From positions 124,001-188,000 of the forward strand of contig JAPEUD010000023.1 in NCBI GenBank assembly GCA_026026165.1: a stretch of 64,000 bases of DNA, in the 5' to 3' direction. Within the stretch, counting starts at the first letter, position 1. Each line of letters begins with the position of its first letter. Origin of the DNA: Sarea resinae (lineage: Eukaryota). The notes under the pieces were generated by a model. The model worked only from the letters and a program-made list of their open reading frames with translations. It was not told where the DNA came from and did no database searches. Shown here in pieces: positions 42,822-53,949 of the stretch. The translations under genes and the position numbers were made by a program.

Positions 42822-45409
42822 CTACGAGATTTCCTGGATGTAATTCGCAGGCACGCTCCTCGTCTCGCCGCCCTTTTCCACGTCGGCCCATCCATCTCCC
42901 GAATCTTTGTTTATGAGCACGAATCGATCGCCCTCCGCCATGTTCCACTCAGCTTCACTGCGAGCTTCGTAATCGTATAGAGCTTCGACGTATTTAAGCT
43001 TCTTAGCGCCCCTCTTAGGAGCTACTGCCGGGCCCTTCTTTTTGCCTCCTGTCGCGGCTACAGTACTGGAAAGGGAGGCTGAGGAGTTTGAATACGTCGA
43101 TGCAGGCCTCTCGGATAAGGGATTTGCTGAAGGGACGATTTCCGCGTAAGCTGCTGGAATCAGACCCTCCTCGGAACCAGCTCGAACTCGCATCCATCCT
43201 GAACCGTCTACACCCGATTATTAGCCGATATGACGATGGCATGGGCAATGGAAGAGGATTGGAGTAAATTACCGTCAGGTTCCACGACTACAATAGTCTG
43301 CCCCTCATCCACGGTGAGCTCACCATCGCCATTGGACTGATACGCATACATCATCTTTCCCCTCTGCTCCCCGGGCTTTAGACCACCACCGTTCAACTCG
43401 GCTCCTTGACTCACATACTGCGCCGGTGGTGGCGCCACAACTCTGTTCTTTTTCAATGCACCTGCGATCGGCTTGACCGTACCGCTTCGCTCTGGTCCCT
43501 CTTCTGTTGCGGTCTTCCCACTCAGCCCAGAAAGGGTTCTTTGCGCACTCGTAGCGTAACCAGAGCTCAAGGAATTCATTGTGTTGCTCCTACTCAGTTC
43601 TGGTCGTTCCGCTGCTCCGTTCGGTGGCGTCGCAGTAGTAGTATGATGGGCATGAGCAGCGTGCGCCGCATCTTGCCGCTCAACCTTTAATTTCTTCTTC
43701 TGCTCCTTTGTTTGCTCTCCCGGACATTCAGCAGGGACTTTCATTTCGCATTTACTGTGGCACGTGTAACCACAATCGCGGCAGTCGAAGCCTTTAGCCG
43801 AGAGACCCCATATTCGCTCGCCACATAGATCGCAATTTGTCGGTATCTTGAAGGTTTGAGACTTGAAATCGTGAGTGCTTGCACCTAACGTAACATCACC
43901 AACTGTCGAAGTGATAGTCGAAACTTCCACCTCGGCCGCCAGACGCTTGTGGTCGATTTGATGCAGGTCACCTTGCATCGAGAGAACTGCTTGAACGACC
44001 TCTACCTCGTCTCTTTTGTCTTTGCCGGCCTTTATATTTGTCCTCACTTGTTTCACGTTTTCCACCTCCTTTCGCTTCTTCTCAACTTCCCTTCGAAGTT
44101 CGGAGAGTTGACCTTTGCCTTTCCCAAGCACGTTTCGCAGAAATACTTTTGCCGCTTCATCCGTGACCATAACATCATCATCATGCCAAACAGGACTTGG
44201 TTCGAAAGCCATATCCGCAGGTTCTTGCCAGCCCCCAGCATTATGTTTCGCGAACATGGCTGAGTCCAGATGAGGACTGTTGCGAGGTATCTCCGCCGAA
44301 AGATGATTTAAGTGTTCAAGGCTCCTCGACAGTAGCGATGTCTCCAATTGTGCTGCTAAAGACCATACCGAGTTCAACTTTGCAGTCCTCGTTTCTGACA
44401 AGTCCTGCATGCTCTGCATAAACCGTCAGCATCGTCTTTAGGGTACTTTTAATCGTGCGGCCGTGCTTACATCTAACAATTCAGGTATGTACTCATGGTA
44501 ATACCTTTCCTTTAGCTTGTTGGTCACATTGATGCTTATGATGTAAGTATTCTGCGAGCGTTAGCGCTTGAGTTACGTGGCCCAGAAAACTAATGAGCCC
44601 ATACCTTCACATTGTGCATATCAAGCAGTTGCTGCTGATATGCATTTTGGGCTTTGCCCTTATTAGAATCGAACGATGAGTCAATCTTTTTTCTCCTGTT
44701 CTCCACCTCCTGGCATACAACATCGTAATTTGCCTTCACCTTCTTCAAGTCTGCGTAAGATCCATCTCGCTCCTTTTCCAGTAACGCTGCGTAGTCCGCA
44801 TGGCGCCTTCTTAGCTCTTCATACCGTGTTGCCACGGCTCGAAGAGGGTCGGCAACATGCGAGATTAGCTCTGTGGAAAAGCGGTCGTGCTCCGCCGCTC
44901 GAGATTCCAAAGTGGAAAGTTGAGTACCCCATGTGGTCAGAGAGGCACTAAGTGAAAGAGACAAGTCAGGACCGCCTCCTTTGAACCCGGAAACACATGC
45001 TTGCCATACCTTTCCAGCGAGCCAGGTGTCATAGTCGGCGTCTCACCAACGCTGAGACTACTCGTCTTCTTTGCCTTCTTCTCGAAATATTTTTTGGCCA
45101 AGCCATTGAGCTTGGCGGCATATTCTCTCTCAATGGCACTGCGCTCCCGGTAGAATTGTTGGATATCGTCCAGCCATAATATGCCGTTCGCGACCTATCG
45201 TGTGCACGATCAGTGTGTGTTCCACTCGCTTCCGCTGCTGAGGTTGATGTCATGGCGCAATGCGTACCCAGGCATTTACAGGCTTAAAGGCATCCTAGAA
45301 GATATGGCACGTCAGCTTCTCTCTCCTGTGCGCCTTGTGGAGGATCATTCGGCAGAATGTATACCTTCAATTCCGCCCCGAAGCTGGGCGCCACGTCCAC
45401 CTGCGCCAT
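42822..45409 (-). CDS. BZZ1: F-BAR / C1 / double-SH3 endocytic protein Bzz1
   Basis: MAQVDVAPSFGAELK-DAFKP...FYRERSAIEREYAAKL (F-BAR), HDFKSQTFKIPTNCDLC...CRDCGYTCHSKC (C1), two SH3 domains ending SVPANYIQEIS*. Confidence 0.95.
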
Positions 45410-45929: not shown

Positions 45930-46756
45930 ATGGCCATCAAGTAAGGACTCTCTGAGGATTTCCTCGTGCTCAGTGACAGCAATGCTAATGGGTTCATCTT
46001 CCCAGCTACCTCATCCTGCTCTCTCGGCAGGGCAAAGTTGTAAGTCCATCAATACCCCTCCCACGAGAACTCATTGTTTTGAACGCCGCTGACCGAGCCC
46101 TCAGCGTCTTGCCAAATGGTTCACCACCCTGTCCCCAAAGGAGAAGGCCAAGATCGTCAAGGACGTCTCGCAACTAGTCCTCTCTCGTCGGACTCGGATG
46201 TGTAATTTCCTCGAATACAAAGGTTCCCAGTCCCTCTGAGGCAATGGTCGATGGACGCAGCTAACAAAATGTTCCAATCAGATACCAAGGTCGTCTATCG
46301 GCGATACGCATCCCTCTTCTTCATTGCCGGCTGCTCTTCAACCGACAACGAATTGATCACGCTCGAGATTGTGCATCGCTACGTCGAGCAGATGGACAAG
46401 TACTACGGCAATGTCTGCGAGCTGGATATCATCTTCAACTTCCAGAAAGCCTACTTCATCCTTGATGAGCTATTGTTGGCCGGCGAGATGCAGGAGAGCA
46501 GCAAGAAGAACGTGCTGAGGTGTATCAGTCAGCAGGATAGTTTGGAAGACATGGAGGTAAGCAACATATGATTTCCGGAGGGTTTTCGAAAAGGGCGTAC
46601 TACACTGTGCGTCGTAGGTCCAGTTCAAGCTGTCTACCTCCCTCTGAAACCGTTCAAATCATGTCTTGGACGATGTGTATGATTATCGGAGGGCAGACTG
46701 ACATATTCTCCTCTCATCTCCAGGTCGAGGATGACGGGATTACCAAGATAGCTTGA
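45930..46756 (+). CDS. APS1: AP-1 adaptor complex sigma subunit
   Basis: Five exons. [17 protein letters not shown]...[10 protein letters not shown]...[15 protein letters not shown]...[19 protein letters not shown]. Confidence 0.95.
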
Positions 46757-48136: not shown

Positions 48137-49340
48137 ATGAAGGTAAGCTCAATGTCCTGGAGAACGGAGTCGCGCGTCCAGAAGTCCTATCGAATAGGTT
48201 TTCTTATAATCATTCAACATCAAGCTGATCCGATGACATTAGTTCCTTCCACTTCGCGACTTTGACGACGTCACCAGCGCGCTCAACTTCGACACGCCCG
48301 ACTGCCACGTCATCGGCGGCTGCGACCTCTACACAACGAAGGCTGCCGGTTCCGACAAGAAATTGTACAAAACAATCGAGAATTCCCTCGAATCGCAGTA
48401 CGAATCCCTTCTACGCCTATCAGCTTCTCTCTCCCCGCCGCAAGCCACCTCGGCCGCCTCGTCGCTCAACCTGAGTCGCTCGAGTCCCTTTGGCCCTCTG
48501 AGCCAGATCTCAAGCCGTCGCACCTTCGCCTACCTAATCGCAACACTCAACGCAAGCCATCCAGATTACGACTTCAGCCATATCCTGCGGCCCACCGACT
48601 TCCGTCGCGAACGCACGCTGAGATCGGTCATGAATACCCTTGACTCAACCCTCTACAATCTGCGTCCACGCCCGTCGAATTCCTCTCTCGCGGCTCCACC
48701 TCCGTGGACTACCACAATCGCCCCAGCCAGCTGCCCACCAGCTCCAGGAGGGGGGCATATTTGGGGTCCGCGCATGTGGGGTCTGATCGACAAAGAGATG
48801 AACCTGAAGGAATGCAGCATCTACTGCTACGCGCCCGAAGAGGACCCTTATGACGGCGAAGATGGCGCCATCTGGAGCTTCAATTATTTCTTCTTCAACA
48901 AAGCGCGCAAGCGTGTCTGCTATCTCTATCTGCGCGGTTTGAGCGTTATGAGCCATTCCCCTGCGCAGCGATCTACCATGCTCGCGAGTGGCGGAAAGGG
49001 CAAAGGTATGGCTAGCAGCGCCGATTGGGGCGCGGATAAGCGGGCCAAGTACTGGCTGGGCGATCGCGCCGATGGAGGCGATGTCAGGGGAGGATGGGGC
49101 GAGGATGATGAAGAGGATGAAGTGCTGGGCGATTGGGATGATGACGAGGTCGACGAGGATGAGGTCATTGATGATGGGGATGAATTGGGGTATCACTTCA
49201 GCGAGGAAGACGACGATGACGAGGAAGAGAATGCCGCGAGCGTCGAGGCCAGGCACGAAGTTTTGAGAAAGGAGAGGGAGAGAAGGAAGAGTCATGTCAG
49301 GGGTATGAGTGAGGATATTGCCGAGTCTATGGAAGTGTAA
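48137..49340 (+). CDS. MAF1: RNA polymerase III repressor Maf1
   Basis: Two-codon first exon (ATGAAG|GTAAGC), exon 2 from 48243. GGCDLYTTKAAGSDKKLYK, YLIATLNASHPDYDFS, WSFNYFFFNKARKRV and an acidic tail. Confidence 0.97.
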
Positions 49341-50723
49341 ACTTTCTTTCTTTTCTATCCTTTCTCTCTGTTTCTCTCATCTTCATTCCCATTTTCCCTT
49401 CTCGATTCTTCGGTGTTGGTCCTTGTCCCACGTGTTCTATGAACCAGCCGTTCGCGCGTCGTTCTCCTTAGTTCTTCATCTGTTTTCCTAGGGCCGGGCT
49501 CTAGGTTCTCTTCTCCAAAGGATAATTTTCCGTCTTTCATCTACGCAGGCCTTCTTCTTATTGCATACTCGACCCGGTGGGAGCGGCTCGGTTTTGCGAT
49601 GATACCTGCATTTTGTTTTCTGTCTCATCTTTCCAATCTCTGTTCACTTCCTGGCCTACTTTTACGCAAATGGATTTGGAACGGCTGTGGAGGCGACCGC
49701 GACCGCGACCGCGCGGTAGCTTTGGGAATTAATACCCACGGCCGAGCAGACTCGTTCGCCGGGTAGGCGGTTGGTTGGTTTTTGTTTTCCGGATTGTCGG
49801 ATGGCGTGGCGTTTCCTTAATCCTCTCGTGTCCGGTGAGAGCGGATGGCGCGGCGCAACGCGGCGCGGCGCAGGATAGGATAGGATAGGACAGGACAGGA
49901 CAGGATAGGCAACCCTGTGGACGTTTGGTGTGGGAGGTTTCTTTCTTTGCCTGTCTGGGCAATATCGAGCAAATGCGCGGGCTGGGGGAGCGGGCGTCTT
50001 AGTACTTATTACGCTTGTCATTTTGTACATGAGTTCCTATTAATTCAGAATCGACTGAACTGAATTGAAAAGGCGATGAGAGCGCTGTGTTTGTGAGATT
50101 TGTTCGATGGAATGCATCTGTGGATATGCAAATTGAGGCTTGCGAGTGGTGTGAGGTTGGTATCTGTCTATCTATCTGTCTGATGGTGGATGATGACGAA
50201 AAGCATGAGCCCACGTGGAATATTTCTGTGTGCGTTCCCTGCTGCCCCTGTGCCGTTATGTGAGTGAGTGAGTGAGCGAGTGAGTGAGTATATTTCCATC
50301 CCACCCAGCTCCGATGTCTATGCCCTCGTAAAAACCCCCGTATGCCTCAAAGAATCCCATTTTGATGTCCATCCAGTCCGGTCCGAAACCCCCGTACCAC
50401 CACGCTCCGTGTCCCTCCTTGTCTCCGAGTCCTTTATTCTGCCCCGTTTTCGGGCACTTCTCGCTCTAACCTCTGGCAGATGTATTATATCTGCTCTTGA
50501 GTTGATTTCATCCCCACATATCCCCGACCCAGGACCTCGGATTTCATCTCATCTTGGCCGCGCGAACTCGTTCCTTCGCCAGCTGTATTGCTAGTTGGAG
50601 TGGAGTTCTGCCAGTCACTAAATCTATAGAGCAGAGGAGATCTCTGCTACTTTCCCGCACCGCAGAGCAAAGCCATTCTTCGCCCATTGTTCCTTTCGAG
50701 ACCCAATACTTCCCCCAAAGCTC

Positions 50724-51419
50724 TTATTCGCCTTCGTTCCGTCCGTCCTCTTCCCCTTCCCCCTCCCCATCCTCACCGTTCAATTCTCTCACCCACTCTT
50801 CCTGTAATCGTCTTGCCACGCCCTCGAGCTCCATCAACGCGGCTCTGACTTCTCCTCTGCTTCCTCCAGGCGCCACAACCGTTGCTATCATTGCTGGAGG
50901 GTTGGAGTCGTCTTCGGCCGCTGCCATTGTGGAAGCATTTCCGGTAGCGACAGAGACATCTCCGCGCCCAGCGACCCCTAGACTCCCCTCCCCATTCGCG
51001 GCACCCGCGGCATCCGGCACCTCCAATGTGGCTGATCCCTCTCCAGCTGGCCCGGAACCCTCGCTACCAGATGCTGCCGTCGGCGGAGCAACATAAGCCT
51101 GTGACAGCGTTGTGCCATCCTTCAGCTCAGCCCCGATGCGCAGCGCAGGGCCGAAACCTACGCGAGAGGTATTCTCGTGCGCGGTGAGGAAAGTGTTGGT
51201 GAGGTAGGTGAGGGAGGCCGAGGTGGTGTTCTCGTGATGGTTGTCATCGGCGTCACGGTTATGCGCGGAGGAAGAAGAGTCTGGCCGTGGAGAGGAAGAA
51301 GTGAGTGTTTGGGAATTGTCTGCAGCGGTCGAGGTTATGGGAAAAGTGGTCGAGTCCGTGAGGTGCAGTGAGAGGGTTGGGTGTGCGCGTGCTATCGGTG
51401 TTGGAGGGTCTGGCGACAT
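50724..51419 (-). CDS. Hypothetical protein; candidate LAMTOR3/MP1-like roadblock protein
   Basis: Intronless 231-aa ORF, divergent from the golgin gene. Ordered blocks separated by low-complexity inserts resemble LAMTOR3 (see findings). Confidence 0.75.
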   Translation of the reverse strand: MSPDPPTPIARAHPTLSLHLTDSTTFPITSTAADNSQTLTSSSPRPDSSSSAHNRDADDNHHENTTSASLTYLTNTFLTAHENTSRVGFGPALRIGAELKDGTTLSQAYVAPPTAASGSEGSGPAGEGSATLEVPDAAGAANGEGSLGVAGRGDVSVATGNASTMAAAEDDSNPPAMIATVVAPGGSRGEVRAALMELEGVARRLQEEWVRELNGEDGEGEGEEDGRNEGE

Positions 51420-51798
51420 GTTGAATGCTCCTTTGAGGCAGCTCGAGAGATCTTGGTGGACTAAATGCTATGGATTCATGAGGTTGTGAGGATTTGTGAG
51501 GATTCACGGGGATTGTGTGCAGAATTGAAGCTCTTCATGCTGTCTCTGCCTCTGTCTCAGCTGGAGCTCTTCTCTGCGTTGGAAAGCTTTCCATTATGAC
51601 CTAAACGAGCTCTCTGGTTCGCCTACGCCATAGGTGCCCCATTCGGTATGCTTAGCGAGAGCTCATCCGGGGGTCTGGTCTCGAGTACGCAGTATGTATG
51701 GGCGACCCGTCCAAGGGACCTGGAAGCTGAACAACAACCAACCGCGTCTCCGTTCAATGTCCATAGCATTGTGAAGCCTGCTGTCACCCCACTTCACC

Positions 51799-53949
51799 AT
51801 GGCTGACACCGAAGACAAGGAGAAGGCTGAGAAGCTTGCGGCTGCTAAGAAGAGGGTACGTCGGCCGACGGACGGCTTTACGCTCCTTTGATAGCCTCCC
51901 CAAGACGCGCATGGCCATCCTCGTGAGAGCTGCAGCTAACTGGGTCATTTCGACTAGTATGAACAACTGAAGAAGCAAAAGGGCAAGAAGGGCGGTGCGA
52001 AGAAGAAAGAAGTGGAGAAGGCCAAAGTTGAAGCAGCCGAAGCTGAAGCCGAAGCCGAAGCCGAAGCCTCTACCACCGCAGATCAAACCGAGGAGGCGCC
52101 AAAGGAAGAAGATGCAGACGCAGATGGCCCAGAGACTGAGAAGGACACTGATGTCGCCGAGGGTACTCACAAGGGCGAATCCGAGGACCAGGACGACGCG
52201 CCGTCTGAGCCCGAAGCCAAAGACAACGAAAAGGTCCCTTCTGGTTCGTCTTCGCACAACAGACAGCCTTCGCTATCGGTGCAATCGAAGATGCGATCAT
52301 CATCCTTCCGTCGAACGTCGCTCTCTCAGACGCCTCAATCACCCACGCTGCAGCCCTCCTGGGGTCCAGAGGGTGTGCCGGAGATATATCGAAAACAGGC
52401 AGCTCGGATCGATGAGATGGAGACTACGACGAAGCAATTGGAGAAGGAATGCAAAGAGTTCGAGAGGCGGTGGAAGAAGGCCGAGGAGGAGCTTGAGGAG
52501 CTTAGAGAAGCGAACGTTGAGGTTGCTGAATTGAAGACTCGGGCACAAAAGGCGGAGGAGAAAGGGGAAGAGATCGAAAAGCTGGTTTGTTCACCTGTTC
52601 TATTGATTCTACTATCCCTTCCTCGCTCGTCCACGTCTCTTTACTACAAGCCCCTTTGGAACGGCGATTTTTCCCTTTCAGGACGACTAACACCTCTTCA
52701 GAAGAATGAGATCACCTCTCTCCAGCGACATAATTCGCACCTTCAATCTCAAACATCCAGATCAGCCCGTCACGCTTCATCTCCAAGCCTTGCGGGCTCG
52801 TCGCCCCCATCCGACCTACAAGCCCAACTCGCCTCCAAGTCCTCTACCATCGAGTCCATGGAAATGGAAATCTCTAATCTCAGGACCCAAGTCACCAAAT
52901 CTTCTTCCTCTTCCGATGCCCACGTTGAACAGATAACGGCGCTCGAGGATAAGCTGTCTCGCGCCGAAAAGACGGCCGAGGCCTCAGCTCGCGAACTCGC
53001 AGACCTAAAGAAGAATCTCGACCGTGCCAGCGAGCGTGCCGTCAAGGAGGGTTCTGAGCGCACGTCTGCCGAGACGAAGATCCGGTCCCTGGAACGTGAT
53101 CTCGAAAACGCTGAACGGCGTGCCGACGAATCATCCGCAAAGTTAGAGAGCTTGGAGAAGAAAATTGCAACCCTCACAACCCTCCACAAAGAGTCCGATG
53201 CTCGTTCACATGCCCGTGAACGCGAGCGCGAACGCTTTGCTAGAGAGGCCGCGGACCTGATGACTCGACTCGCAGCCATGGAGAACGAGAACCTTGGTCT
53301 TCGCGAGGAGCGCGAGCGAAGGAGAAAAGCAGATGCGCATGGTGGCAGCGCAGACGACGACGCTGAGATCGATGAGCTGGAGGATGAAGAGAGGAATAAA
53401 CTCCAGGCTAAAATCCGCTCCCTCGAGGCCGAGAATTTCGATCTCCGGCGGGGTGTCTGGCGCGATAAGCGGAGGTCGCTGAGTCTGCGCCAGCGTGGCA
53501 GCAGCAATGTCGGTGGCAAGGCTCCTTTCGGCTCTGCTGCTCCCACTGGTAATAACGCAAGCAACAATAATTTCGACGACGTCGACCTCGGTGGTAACCC
53601 CTCGACGGCATCCAGCAACGCAAACCCGTTCCCGCCGCACCGCCCTCAGAGCAGTACTTCCCGTAATCCCATATCGAGTGTCTTCAACGCTTTCACGGGT
53701 AACCCCGGCGGTTCCAACGACAACAACGCAGATGATCTCCTCGACGACATGGACTTTGACGAAGAGGCGTTCCGCGCTGCGCAGGAAGAGGAGGCCCGCA
53801 AGCGTGTGGAGAGGGTCCGGGAGGTGAAGAGGGGACTCACGCAGTGGAAGAGTTGGAGACTGGATCTGGTTGATGTCCGGGCGGGCTACGGCGGCGGTGC
53901 AGGAGTCGGCAGTGGCGGCTACGGGGTCGGAGAGGTGTTTGATGTCTAG
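51799..53949 (+). CDS. Coiled-coil golgin, Bug1/GM130-like
   Basis: Exons 51799-51855, 51958-52584, 52702-53949. Basic N-terminus EKLAAAKKRYEQLKKQKGKK, long coiled coil, C-terminal WRLDLVD...GEVFDV*. Confidence 0.85.

Follow-up and report, generated by a model that had tools for sequence, protein, structure and literature searches.

A DUF5308 protein of Sarea resinae is a probable counterpart of the Ragulator roadblock subunit Lam3/LAMTOR3

What protein is encoded by the open reading frame (ORF) on the minus strand at positions 50724..51419 of a 64,000-nucleotide stretch of the Sarea resinae genome (contig JAPEUD010000023.1; here called the window), and does it belong to the machinery that controls target of rapamycin complex 1 (TORC1)? 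Ragulator, or EGO, is the anchor for the Rag GTPases, through which TORC1 is informed of amino-acid status. A first-pass annotation, made from the sequence, had read the product as a divergent LAMTOR3/MP1 subunit of Ragulator encoded next to MAF1. The first point to settle is whether the ORF is a gene at all. It runs from ATG to stop in a single exon, with no intron needed, and encodes 231 amino acids followed by a stop codon. Its product matches the Pfam family DUF5308 (PF17233) with an E value of 2e-19 and 70.9 bits, residues 14–208 aligning with positions 1–163 of the 163-position profile, and passes the curated gathering cut-off of 30.8 bits over the whole profile. Since the profile is fully covered at this E value, the ORF is not a chance reading frame. 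It is a real, conserved gene for a full-length member of DUF5308.

The AlphaFold2 model of the 231-residue protein, based on a 40-sequence alignment, has a mean predicted local distance difference test score (pLDDT) of 75.3 and a predicted template modeling score (pTM) of 0.65, with the conserved blocks at pLDDT 91–97 and the inserts between them at about 48–62. It contains a short helix at residues 9–12, strands at 17–22 and 27–30, a helix at 59–86, strands at 94–98, 104–110 and 177–183, and a helix at 188–219. The beta-beta-helix-beta-beta-beta-helix order that had been proposed from the sequence is seen in this model. The three core segments quoted along with it are present in the ORF product at residues 16–32, 70–110 and 175–209, where they coincide with the high-confidence stretches of the prediction, and the low-complexity inserts said to separate them are found as well: insert 1 comprises 27 residues (32–58), 81% of them S/T/G/A/P/N/D/E, and insert 2 comprises 64 residues (111–174), 88% of them from the same set. 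The gene is laid out as follows, 8fw5_H being a Protein Data Bank (PDB) chain of Schizosaccharomyces pombe Lam3.

50724..51419, minus strand: complete single-exon coding sequence of a DUF5308, putatively Lam3-like roadblock protein (ORF translation, PF17233)
51327..51380, minus strand: residues 14–31, strands beta1 and beta2 with the motif HPxLxLHLTD..P..S (AlphaFold2 pLDDT about 94)
51246..51326, minus strand: residues 32–58, Ser/Thr/Asp-rich disordered insert 1, from beta2 to alpha2 (AlphaFold2 pLDDT 57–62, composition)
51090..51245, minus strand: residues 59–110, helix alpha2, R-[LV]-G-x-G loop, beta3 and beta4 (AlphaFold2, profile alignment to 8fw5_H)
50898..51089, minus strand: residues 111–174, Gly/Ala/Ser-rich disordered insert 2, from beta4 to beta5 (AlphaFold2 pLDDT about 48–50, composition)
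50763..50897, minus strand: residues 175–219, beta5 (PPxL[IV]ATVVAP) and the long C-terminal helix alpha3 (EAR..A..LE..GR..Q..W) (AlphaFold2 pLDDT 91–97)
50727..50762, minus strand: residues 220–231, acidic Gly/Glu tail (translation, 92% S/T/G/A/P/N/D/E, low pLDDT)

In the family alignments, D22 of the beta1-beta2 block is invariant and H19 and L20 are nearly so; G90 and R94 are invariant in the block of residues 59–110; and the last block has an invariant P175 together with nearly invariant L177, V181, E199, Q206 and W209. The AlphaFold2 model of a compact relative, P0003 (pLDDT 88, pTM 0.78), displays the complete a-b-b-a-b-b-b-a arrangement with a clear alpha1. When the two models are compared with 48,161 representative chains by VIA-align, the rows over Z 9.5 are roadblock proteins for both, the one exception being a Mon1-Ccz1 chain (Z 9.6). 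Superposition on Lam3, MglB, an Asgard roadblock protein and MP1-p14 gives Z 10–13.6 and a root-mean-square deviation (rmsd) of 2.2–3.0 over 104–118 aligned residues. Foldseek returns no row at E ≤ 1e-3 for the 231-residue model, which is handicapped by its inserts, and its top rows are nonetheless all roadblock proteins. For P0003 it returns 12 rows at E ≤ 1e-3, and the ten listed are roadblock proteins except for chain 8fw5_G of the Gtr-Lam entry. The Atlas model of the 231-residue protein also retrieves roadblock models, and all ten of the nearest named non-DUF5308 clusters belong to a single family or clan. As predicted by these models, the DUF5308 core almost certainly adopts the roadblock fold (short alpha1, beta1-beta2, alpha2, beta3-beta4-beta5, alpha3), with two disordered inserts breaking into the core and an acidic tail after it. 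Structure prediction and fold searches, which the first-pass annotation had named as a way to overturn its reading, thus yield the fold it had proposed.

Which of the roadblock proteins is closest was addressed with three family profiles (A1, 40 members; A2, 80 members; A5, 27 compact members), searched against 177,635 distinct PDB sequences. With profile A1 the sole match at E ≤ 10 is 8fw5_H (E 1.4e-4, 25 bits), deposited under the name 'Schizosaccharomyces pombe LAM3, Human LAMTOR3 ortholog'. Profile A5 finds the same chain at E 1.8e-4, with the following matches at E values of at least 1, and profile A2 ranks it first at E 1.2e-3, a low-complexity match coming second at 0.011. The block formed by residues 59–110 aligns with Lam3 residues about 32–79. 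In VIA-align, 8fw5_H ranks first of all chains for the 231-residue model (Z 13.4, rmsd 2.2 Å, 112 of 117 residues, 16% identity) and again for P0003 (Z 13.6, rmsd 2.4 Å, 113 of 117 residues, 17% identity), while the runner-up reaches Z 11.9 each time. Sequence profiles and structure agree on S. pombe Lam3 as the nearest characterized protein. Lam3 (SPAC222.19; 8fw5_H) and the 231-residue protein have the roadblock topology in common; Lam3 is compact, with 117 residues, whereas the DUF5308 protein is extended to 231 residues by an acidic tail and two disordered inserts, 27 and 64 residues long. Lam3 is set opposite MP1/LAMTOR3 in Table 1 of PMC7828246. The sequence profile, the top VIA-align rank and the occurrence in Ascomycota of separate proteins that bear Robl_LC7 lead us to conclude that the 231-residue protein is likely the Pezizomycotina counterpart of Lam3/LAMTOR3 (MP1), a roadblock subunit of the Ragulator (Lam/EGO-like) scaffold. 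The earlier proposal of a divergent LAMTOR3-like Ragulator component is supported by the roadblock fold of two models, by Lam3 as the best profile and VIA-align match, and by weak matches of relatives to the LAMTOR3 family MAPKK1_Int (PF08923).

Several observations weigh against this assignment. The profile match to Lam3 spans only about 45 residues (alpha2-beta3-beta4) and scores 21.6–25 bits, and phmmer with the 231-residue protein alone returns nothing from the PDB sequences at E ≤ 10; the same search with the relative P0028 returns nothing significant. In Foldseek, 8fw5_H comes only 18th for the 231-residue model (E 0.086) and 30th for P0003 (E 2.6e-3), the latter below Asgard roadblock proteins, dynein LC7, 8fw5_G (160 residues) and human Ragulator chains. 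Atlas features place Ascomycota roadblock/Robl_LC7 clusters (0.89 and 0.80) nearer than the LAMTOR3 cluster (0.77). The 231-residue protein has no match to PF08923 at E ≤ 10, and every PF08923 match of other DUF5308 members falls under the 25-bit cut-off. Finally, in a second look with VIA-align, human Ragulator chains of 10–11% identity reach Z 11.3–12.0, compared to Z 10.2–10.8 for those of 16–17% identity; we take the former to be LAMTOR2/p14 and the latter LAMTOR3/MP1.

The Foldseek ranking, headed by Asgard roadblock and dynein chains, would suit a roadblock protein that works outside Ragulator, either as a regulator or adaptor of some other small GTPase or as a dynein LC7-like protein, with the likeness to Lam3 reflecting nothing but a shared ancient fold. 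The closeness of varied roadblock proteins in VIA-align (Asgard Z 11.9, MglB 11.0, dynein LC7 about 9) fits the same idea. MglB, Streptomyces Roadblock/LC7 and Prometheoarchaeum Roadblock3 share the fold at Z 11.0–11.9, and prokaryotic and Asgard roadblock proteins, which are homodimeric small-GTPase regulators in other domains of life, occupy the top Foldseek rows at E 0.011 for the 231-residue model and 7e-5 for P0003. MglB and its two fellows come without sequence-level signal, however, and the signal that does exist is specific to Lam3 among PDB sequences that include many other roadblock proteins. In addition, of 48,161 chains it is Lam3 on which both models superpose best over the full length, and the faint similarities seen in Pfam point to LAMTOR3 alone. 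We judge a role outside Ragulator to be unlikely, and retain the Lam3/LAMTOR3 assignment.

Could the protein instead be the equivalent of LAMTOR2/p14 (Lam2, Ego3), the other half of the central Ragulator heterodimer? LAMTOR2/p14, S. pombe Lam2 and S. cerevisiae Ego3 (Robl_LC7, PF03259; SLM4, PF16818) have the same fold and sit in the same complex as LAMTOR3, and structure alone cannot separate the two subunits, because both groups of human Ragulator chains score close in VIA-align. The chains of 10–11% identity, taken to be LAMTOR2, even lie slightly above those of 16–17%. Over all comparisons, the low-identity human chains (taken as LAMTOR2 type) score Z 10.3–12.0 at an identity of only 8–11% and have no PDB profile match, and human LAMTOR3/MP1, which has the same fold and is devoid of long inserts, unlike the DUF5308 protein, scores Z 10.2–11.1 at 16–19% identity to those chains of MP1-p14 and Ragulator entries that are taken to be MP1. 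The nearest non-DUF5308 Atlas cluster (0.89) is also automatically named 'Roadblock/LAMTOR2 domain-containing protein', which is a generic domain name.

The PDB profile matches are to Lam3 and not to Lam2 or LAMTOR2, and Lam3 tops the VIA-align list by more than 1.4 Z. Robl_LC7 gives no match to the 231-residue protein at E ≤ 10, and it is absent from the Pfam tallies of family members, which cover all 15 families found for the 40 A1 members and the best 25 of 61 families found for the 147 A7 members; against this stand nine sub-threshold matches to the LAMTOR3 family, in 2 of the 40 A1 and 7 of the 147 A7 members scanned one by one. PF08923 is the sole fold-relevant second family that recurs among them. 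The best case, P0028 (E 0.0024, 18.2 bits), aligns residues 16–78 with positions 18–76 of the 119-position profile, in the register that the first-pass annotation had proposed. A profile-level likeness to the LAMTOR3 family thus appears in these relatives, below threshold, and fails to appear in the 231-residue protein itself. Distinct Ascomycota clusters in the Atlas carry Robl_LC7 in proteins of 238 and 215 residues, and Ltor2 homologues are reported in Ascomycota (PMC11836306). A LAMTOR2/Lam2-type protein is expected as the partner of the DUF5308 protein and not as the same subunit, and we hold it quite improbable that the 231-residue protein is itself the LAMTOR2 equivalent.

How would a Lam3-type subunit act here? 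The block most conserved in DUF5308 is alpha2-loop-beta3, which is also the one that aligns with Lam3. In roadblock dimers, the alpha2/beta3 region forms the dimer interface. We propose that the conserved alpha2/beta3 edge of the DUF5308 protein would pair into a heterodimer with a roadblock protein of the LAMTOR2/Lam2 type, that a lipidated anchor of the LAMTOR1/Lam1/VTA type would wrap this heterodimer, and that the heterodimer would dock the Gtr1-Gtr2 (Rag) GTPases by their C-terminal roadblock domains and keep them at the vacuolar membrane for control of TORC1. Neither the two inserts nor the acidic tail belong to the roadblock fold, and their length is free to vary; the inserts probably serve either as linkers that can be dispensed with or as regulatory regions particular to a lineage. 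For S. pombe, PMC5752196 reports that Gtr1-Gtr2 and the other three Lam proteins (Lam1, Lam2 and Lam4) co-purify with Lam3, that all four Lam proteins are found on vacuolar membranes, with Lam2 and Lam3 dependent on each other for localization, and that deletion of any lam gene mimics the gtr deletions.

How far does the family reach? When 1.84 billion representatives are searched exhaustively by phmmer with the 231-residue protein, 43 proteins are found at E ≤ 1e-3 and 8 at E ≤ 1e-10, the query itself being the only one at E ≤ 1e-30. The best relatives reach only 34–44% identity, which implies that DUF5308 evolves fast, and a word-index homologue search with the single protein returns no match besides itself. 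Profile searches with family alignments find 51 proteins with one alignment and 176 with another (for the latter the best 120 of 176 are listed), and all those listed carry PF17233. Their source names are limited to 'hypothetical', 'uncharacterized', 'unnamed protein product', a bare locus tag or 'DUF5308'. The named host species of the listed members are Leotiomycetes and Sordariomycetes, including Xylaria, Hypoxylon, Daldinia, Colletotrichum, Fusarium, Diaporthe, Podospora appendiculata, Gaeumannomyces, Chlorociboria and Scytalidium. Three conserved blocks recur in the family: HPxLxLHLTD..P..S, L..LT.T.L.A...A.RLGLG.P.RI.VE....GP..LQS.L and PP.L[VI]ATVVAP......EAR.A...LE.VGR.FQ..W. The inserts between them range from 5 to 80 residues (insert 1) and from 21 to 172 residues (insert 2) in alignments of 80 and 147 members.

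Several of the database entries (P0084–P0089) are fragments, either N-terminal halves or proteins that start at an internal methionine (MIET...). Such entries point to gene callers that often divide DUF5308 genes, or cut them short, at the low-complexity inserts.

Is such a subunit already known in filamentous fungi? None of the papers in the library searched mentions 'DUF5308' or 'PF17233', so the link between DUF5308 and Lam3/LAMTOR3 appears to be new, while a Ragulator roadblock subunit is in itself of a known kind. In a 2023 review, S. cerevisiae and S. pombe are the only species for which an EGO/Ragulator scaffold is given. A survey of TORC1 components in fungi, dated 2025, defines Ltor3 by PF08923, and its supplementary columns are headed 'LTOR1/Lam1', 'LTOR2/Lam2' and 'LTOR4/Lam4' but plain 'LTOR3' (PMC11836306). 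In filamentous ascomycetes, descriptions are limited to a LAMTOR1-like anchor (VTA) and GTR1/GTR2; the Neurospora papers state that other EGO/Ragulator components are undescribed (PMC8276340; bioRxiv 10.64898/2025.12.05.692677). The DUF5308 gene probably supplies a Ragulator subunit that has so far gone unnamed in these fungi.

A lead in this direction comes from Neurospora, where VTA-FLAG and GTR2-FLAG pull-downs recover a 33-kDa 'hypothetical protein', NCU04811, with homologues only in related filamentous fungi as given in Table 1 and the text of PMC8276340. NCU04811 co-purifies with GTR1, GTR2 and VTA, and stays on the GTR proteins without VTA (PMC8276340; bioRxiv 10.64898/2025.12.05.692677); a preprint of December 2025 still calls it unidentified (bioRxiv 10.64898/2025.12.05.692677). 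It may be a DUF5308/Lam3-like subunit, a Lam2-like subunit or something else. The best 120 of the 176 family matches contain no entry from Neurospora crassa. A wider claim, that DUF5308 is an unrecognized Lam3/LAMTOR3 throughout Pezizomycotina, overlooked by domain surveys because disordered inserts split its core, and that it may correspond to NCU04811, is one that we advance only tentatively and with more doubt than confidence.

If DUF5308 is Lam3/LAMTOR3, a domain of unknown function can be retired, surveys of presence and absence in which PF08923 is the sole criterion for LAMTOR3 need correction, and a concrete gene becomes available for deletion and tagging in model and pathogenic fungi. 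If the wider claim holds too, with the identity of NCU04811, the inserts, being lineage-specific, could offer handles for the regulation of Rag/TORC1 signaling in filamentous fungi. This would not be a new kind of system, and specialists would expect such a subunit; the gain is for annotation and for work on TORC1 in filamentous fungi.

Does the neighborhood of the gene carry meaning? The MAF1 frame lies at 48243..49340 on the plus strand and matches Pfam Maf1 with E 1e-67 over profile positions 1–174 of 174; it is convergent with the DUF5308 gene, and the two stop codons are 1,383 bp apart. The first-pass annotation had found this adjacency suggestive and had allowed that it may be chance. 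A functional pair of TORC1-pathway genes, kept together or co-regulated, would fit the tail-to-tail position of a well-supported MAF1 and the place of both products in TORC1 biology, which for MAF1 is established knowledge. We compared the window with 21 metagenome loci that contain DUF5308 relatives (subgroup alignment A3), using tblastn with the window neighbors; these loci represent a different, more distant subgroup, about 26–29% identical to the 231-residue protein. MAF1 is not found by tblastn in any of the 21, 11 of which have at least 3 kb on the MAF1 side. Convergent genes, moreover, have no common promoter, and the neighbor that is conserved is a coiled-coil gene on the other side of the DUF5308 gene. 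The adjacency to MAF1 is therefore real but shows no conserved synteny and looks like chance, at least as far as the more distant subgroup is concerned; a functional pairing is highly improbable.

The coiled-coil gene occupies 51799–53949 on the plus strand, has at least two introns as judged by eye, and stands head-to-head with the DUF5308 gene, from which it is separated by the following region.

51420..51798, no strand assigned: divergent intergenic region of 379 bp, a presumed bidirectional promoter (head-to-head with the coiled-coil gene)

The promoter function of this region is presumed from the arrangement of the two genes. The same head-to-head pair with this coiled-coil gene occurs in 13 of the 21 related loci, and in 13 of the 14 that extend more than 1.3 kb upstream. 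Searched against Pfam and PDB sequences, the coiled-coil product gives only sub-threshold generic coiled-coil matches (Filament and ATG16; myosin and tropomyosin chimeras).

Further features were observed on the MAF1 side. The MAF1 gene has a short first exon upstream and encodes a long acidic C-terminal tail. The 1.4 kb between the convergent 3' ends of MAF1 and the DUF5308 gene contain short simple repeats at 49690–49910 and 50262–50295, made up of CGCGAC and GGATAG/GGACAG units and then GAGTGA units. At 46206–46571 on the plus strand lies an exon of a clathrin adaptor complex small (sigma) chain (Pfam Clat_adaptor_s, E 5.6e-36). A multi-exon gene at 43208–45283 on the minus strand encodes a C1 domain of the phorbol ester/diacylglycerol type (Pfam E 7e-17); by eye, its product appears to start with an F-BAR-like region and to end in an SH3-like one, and looks Bzz1-like.

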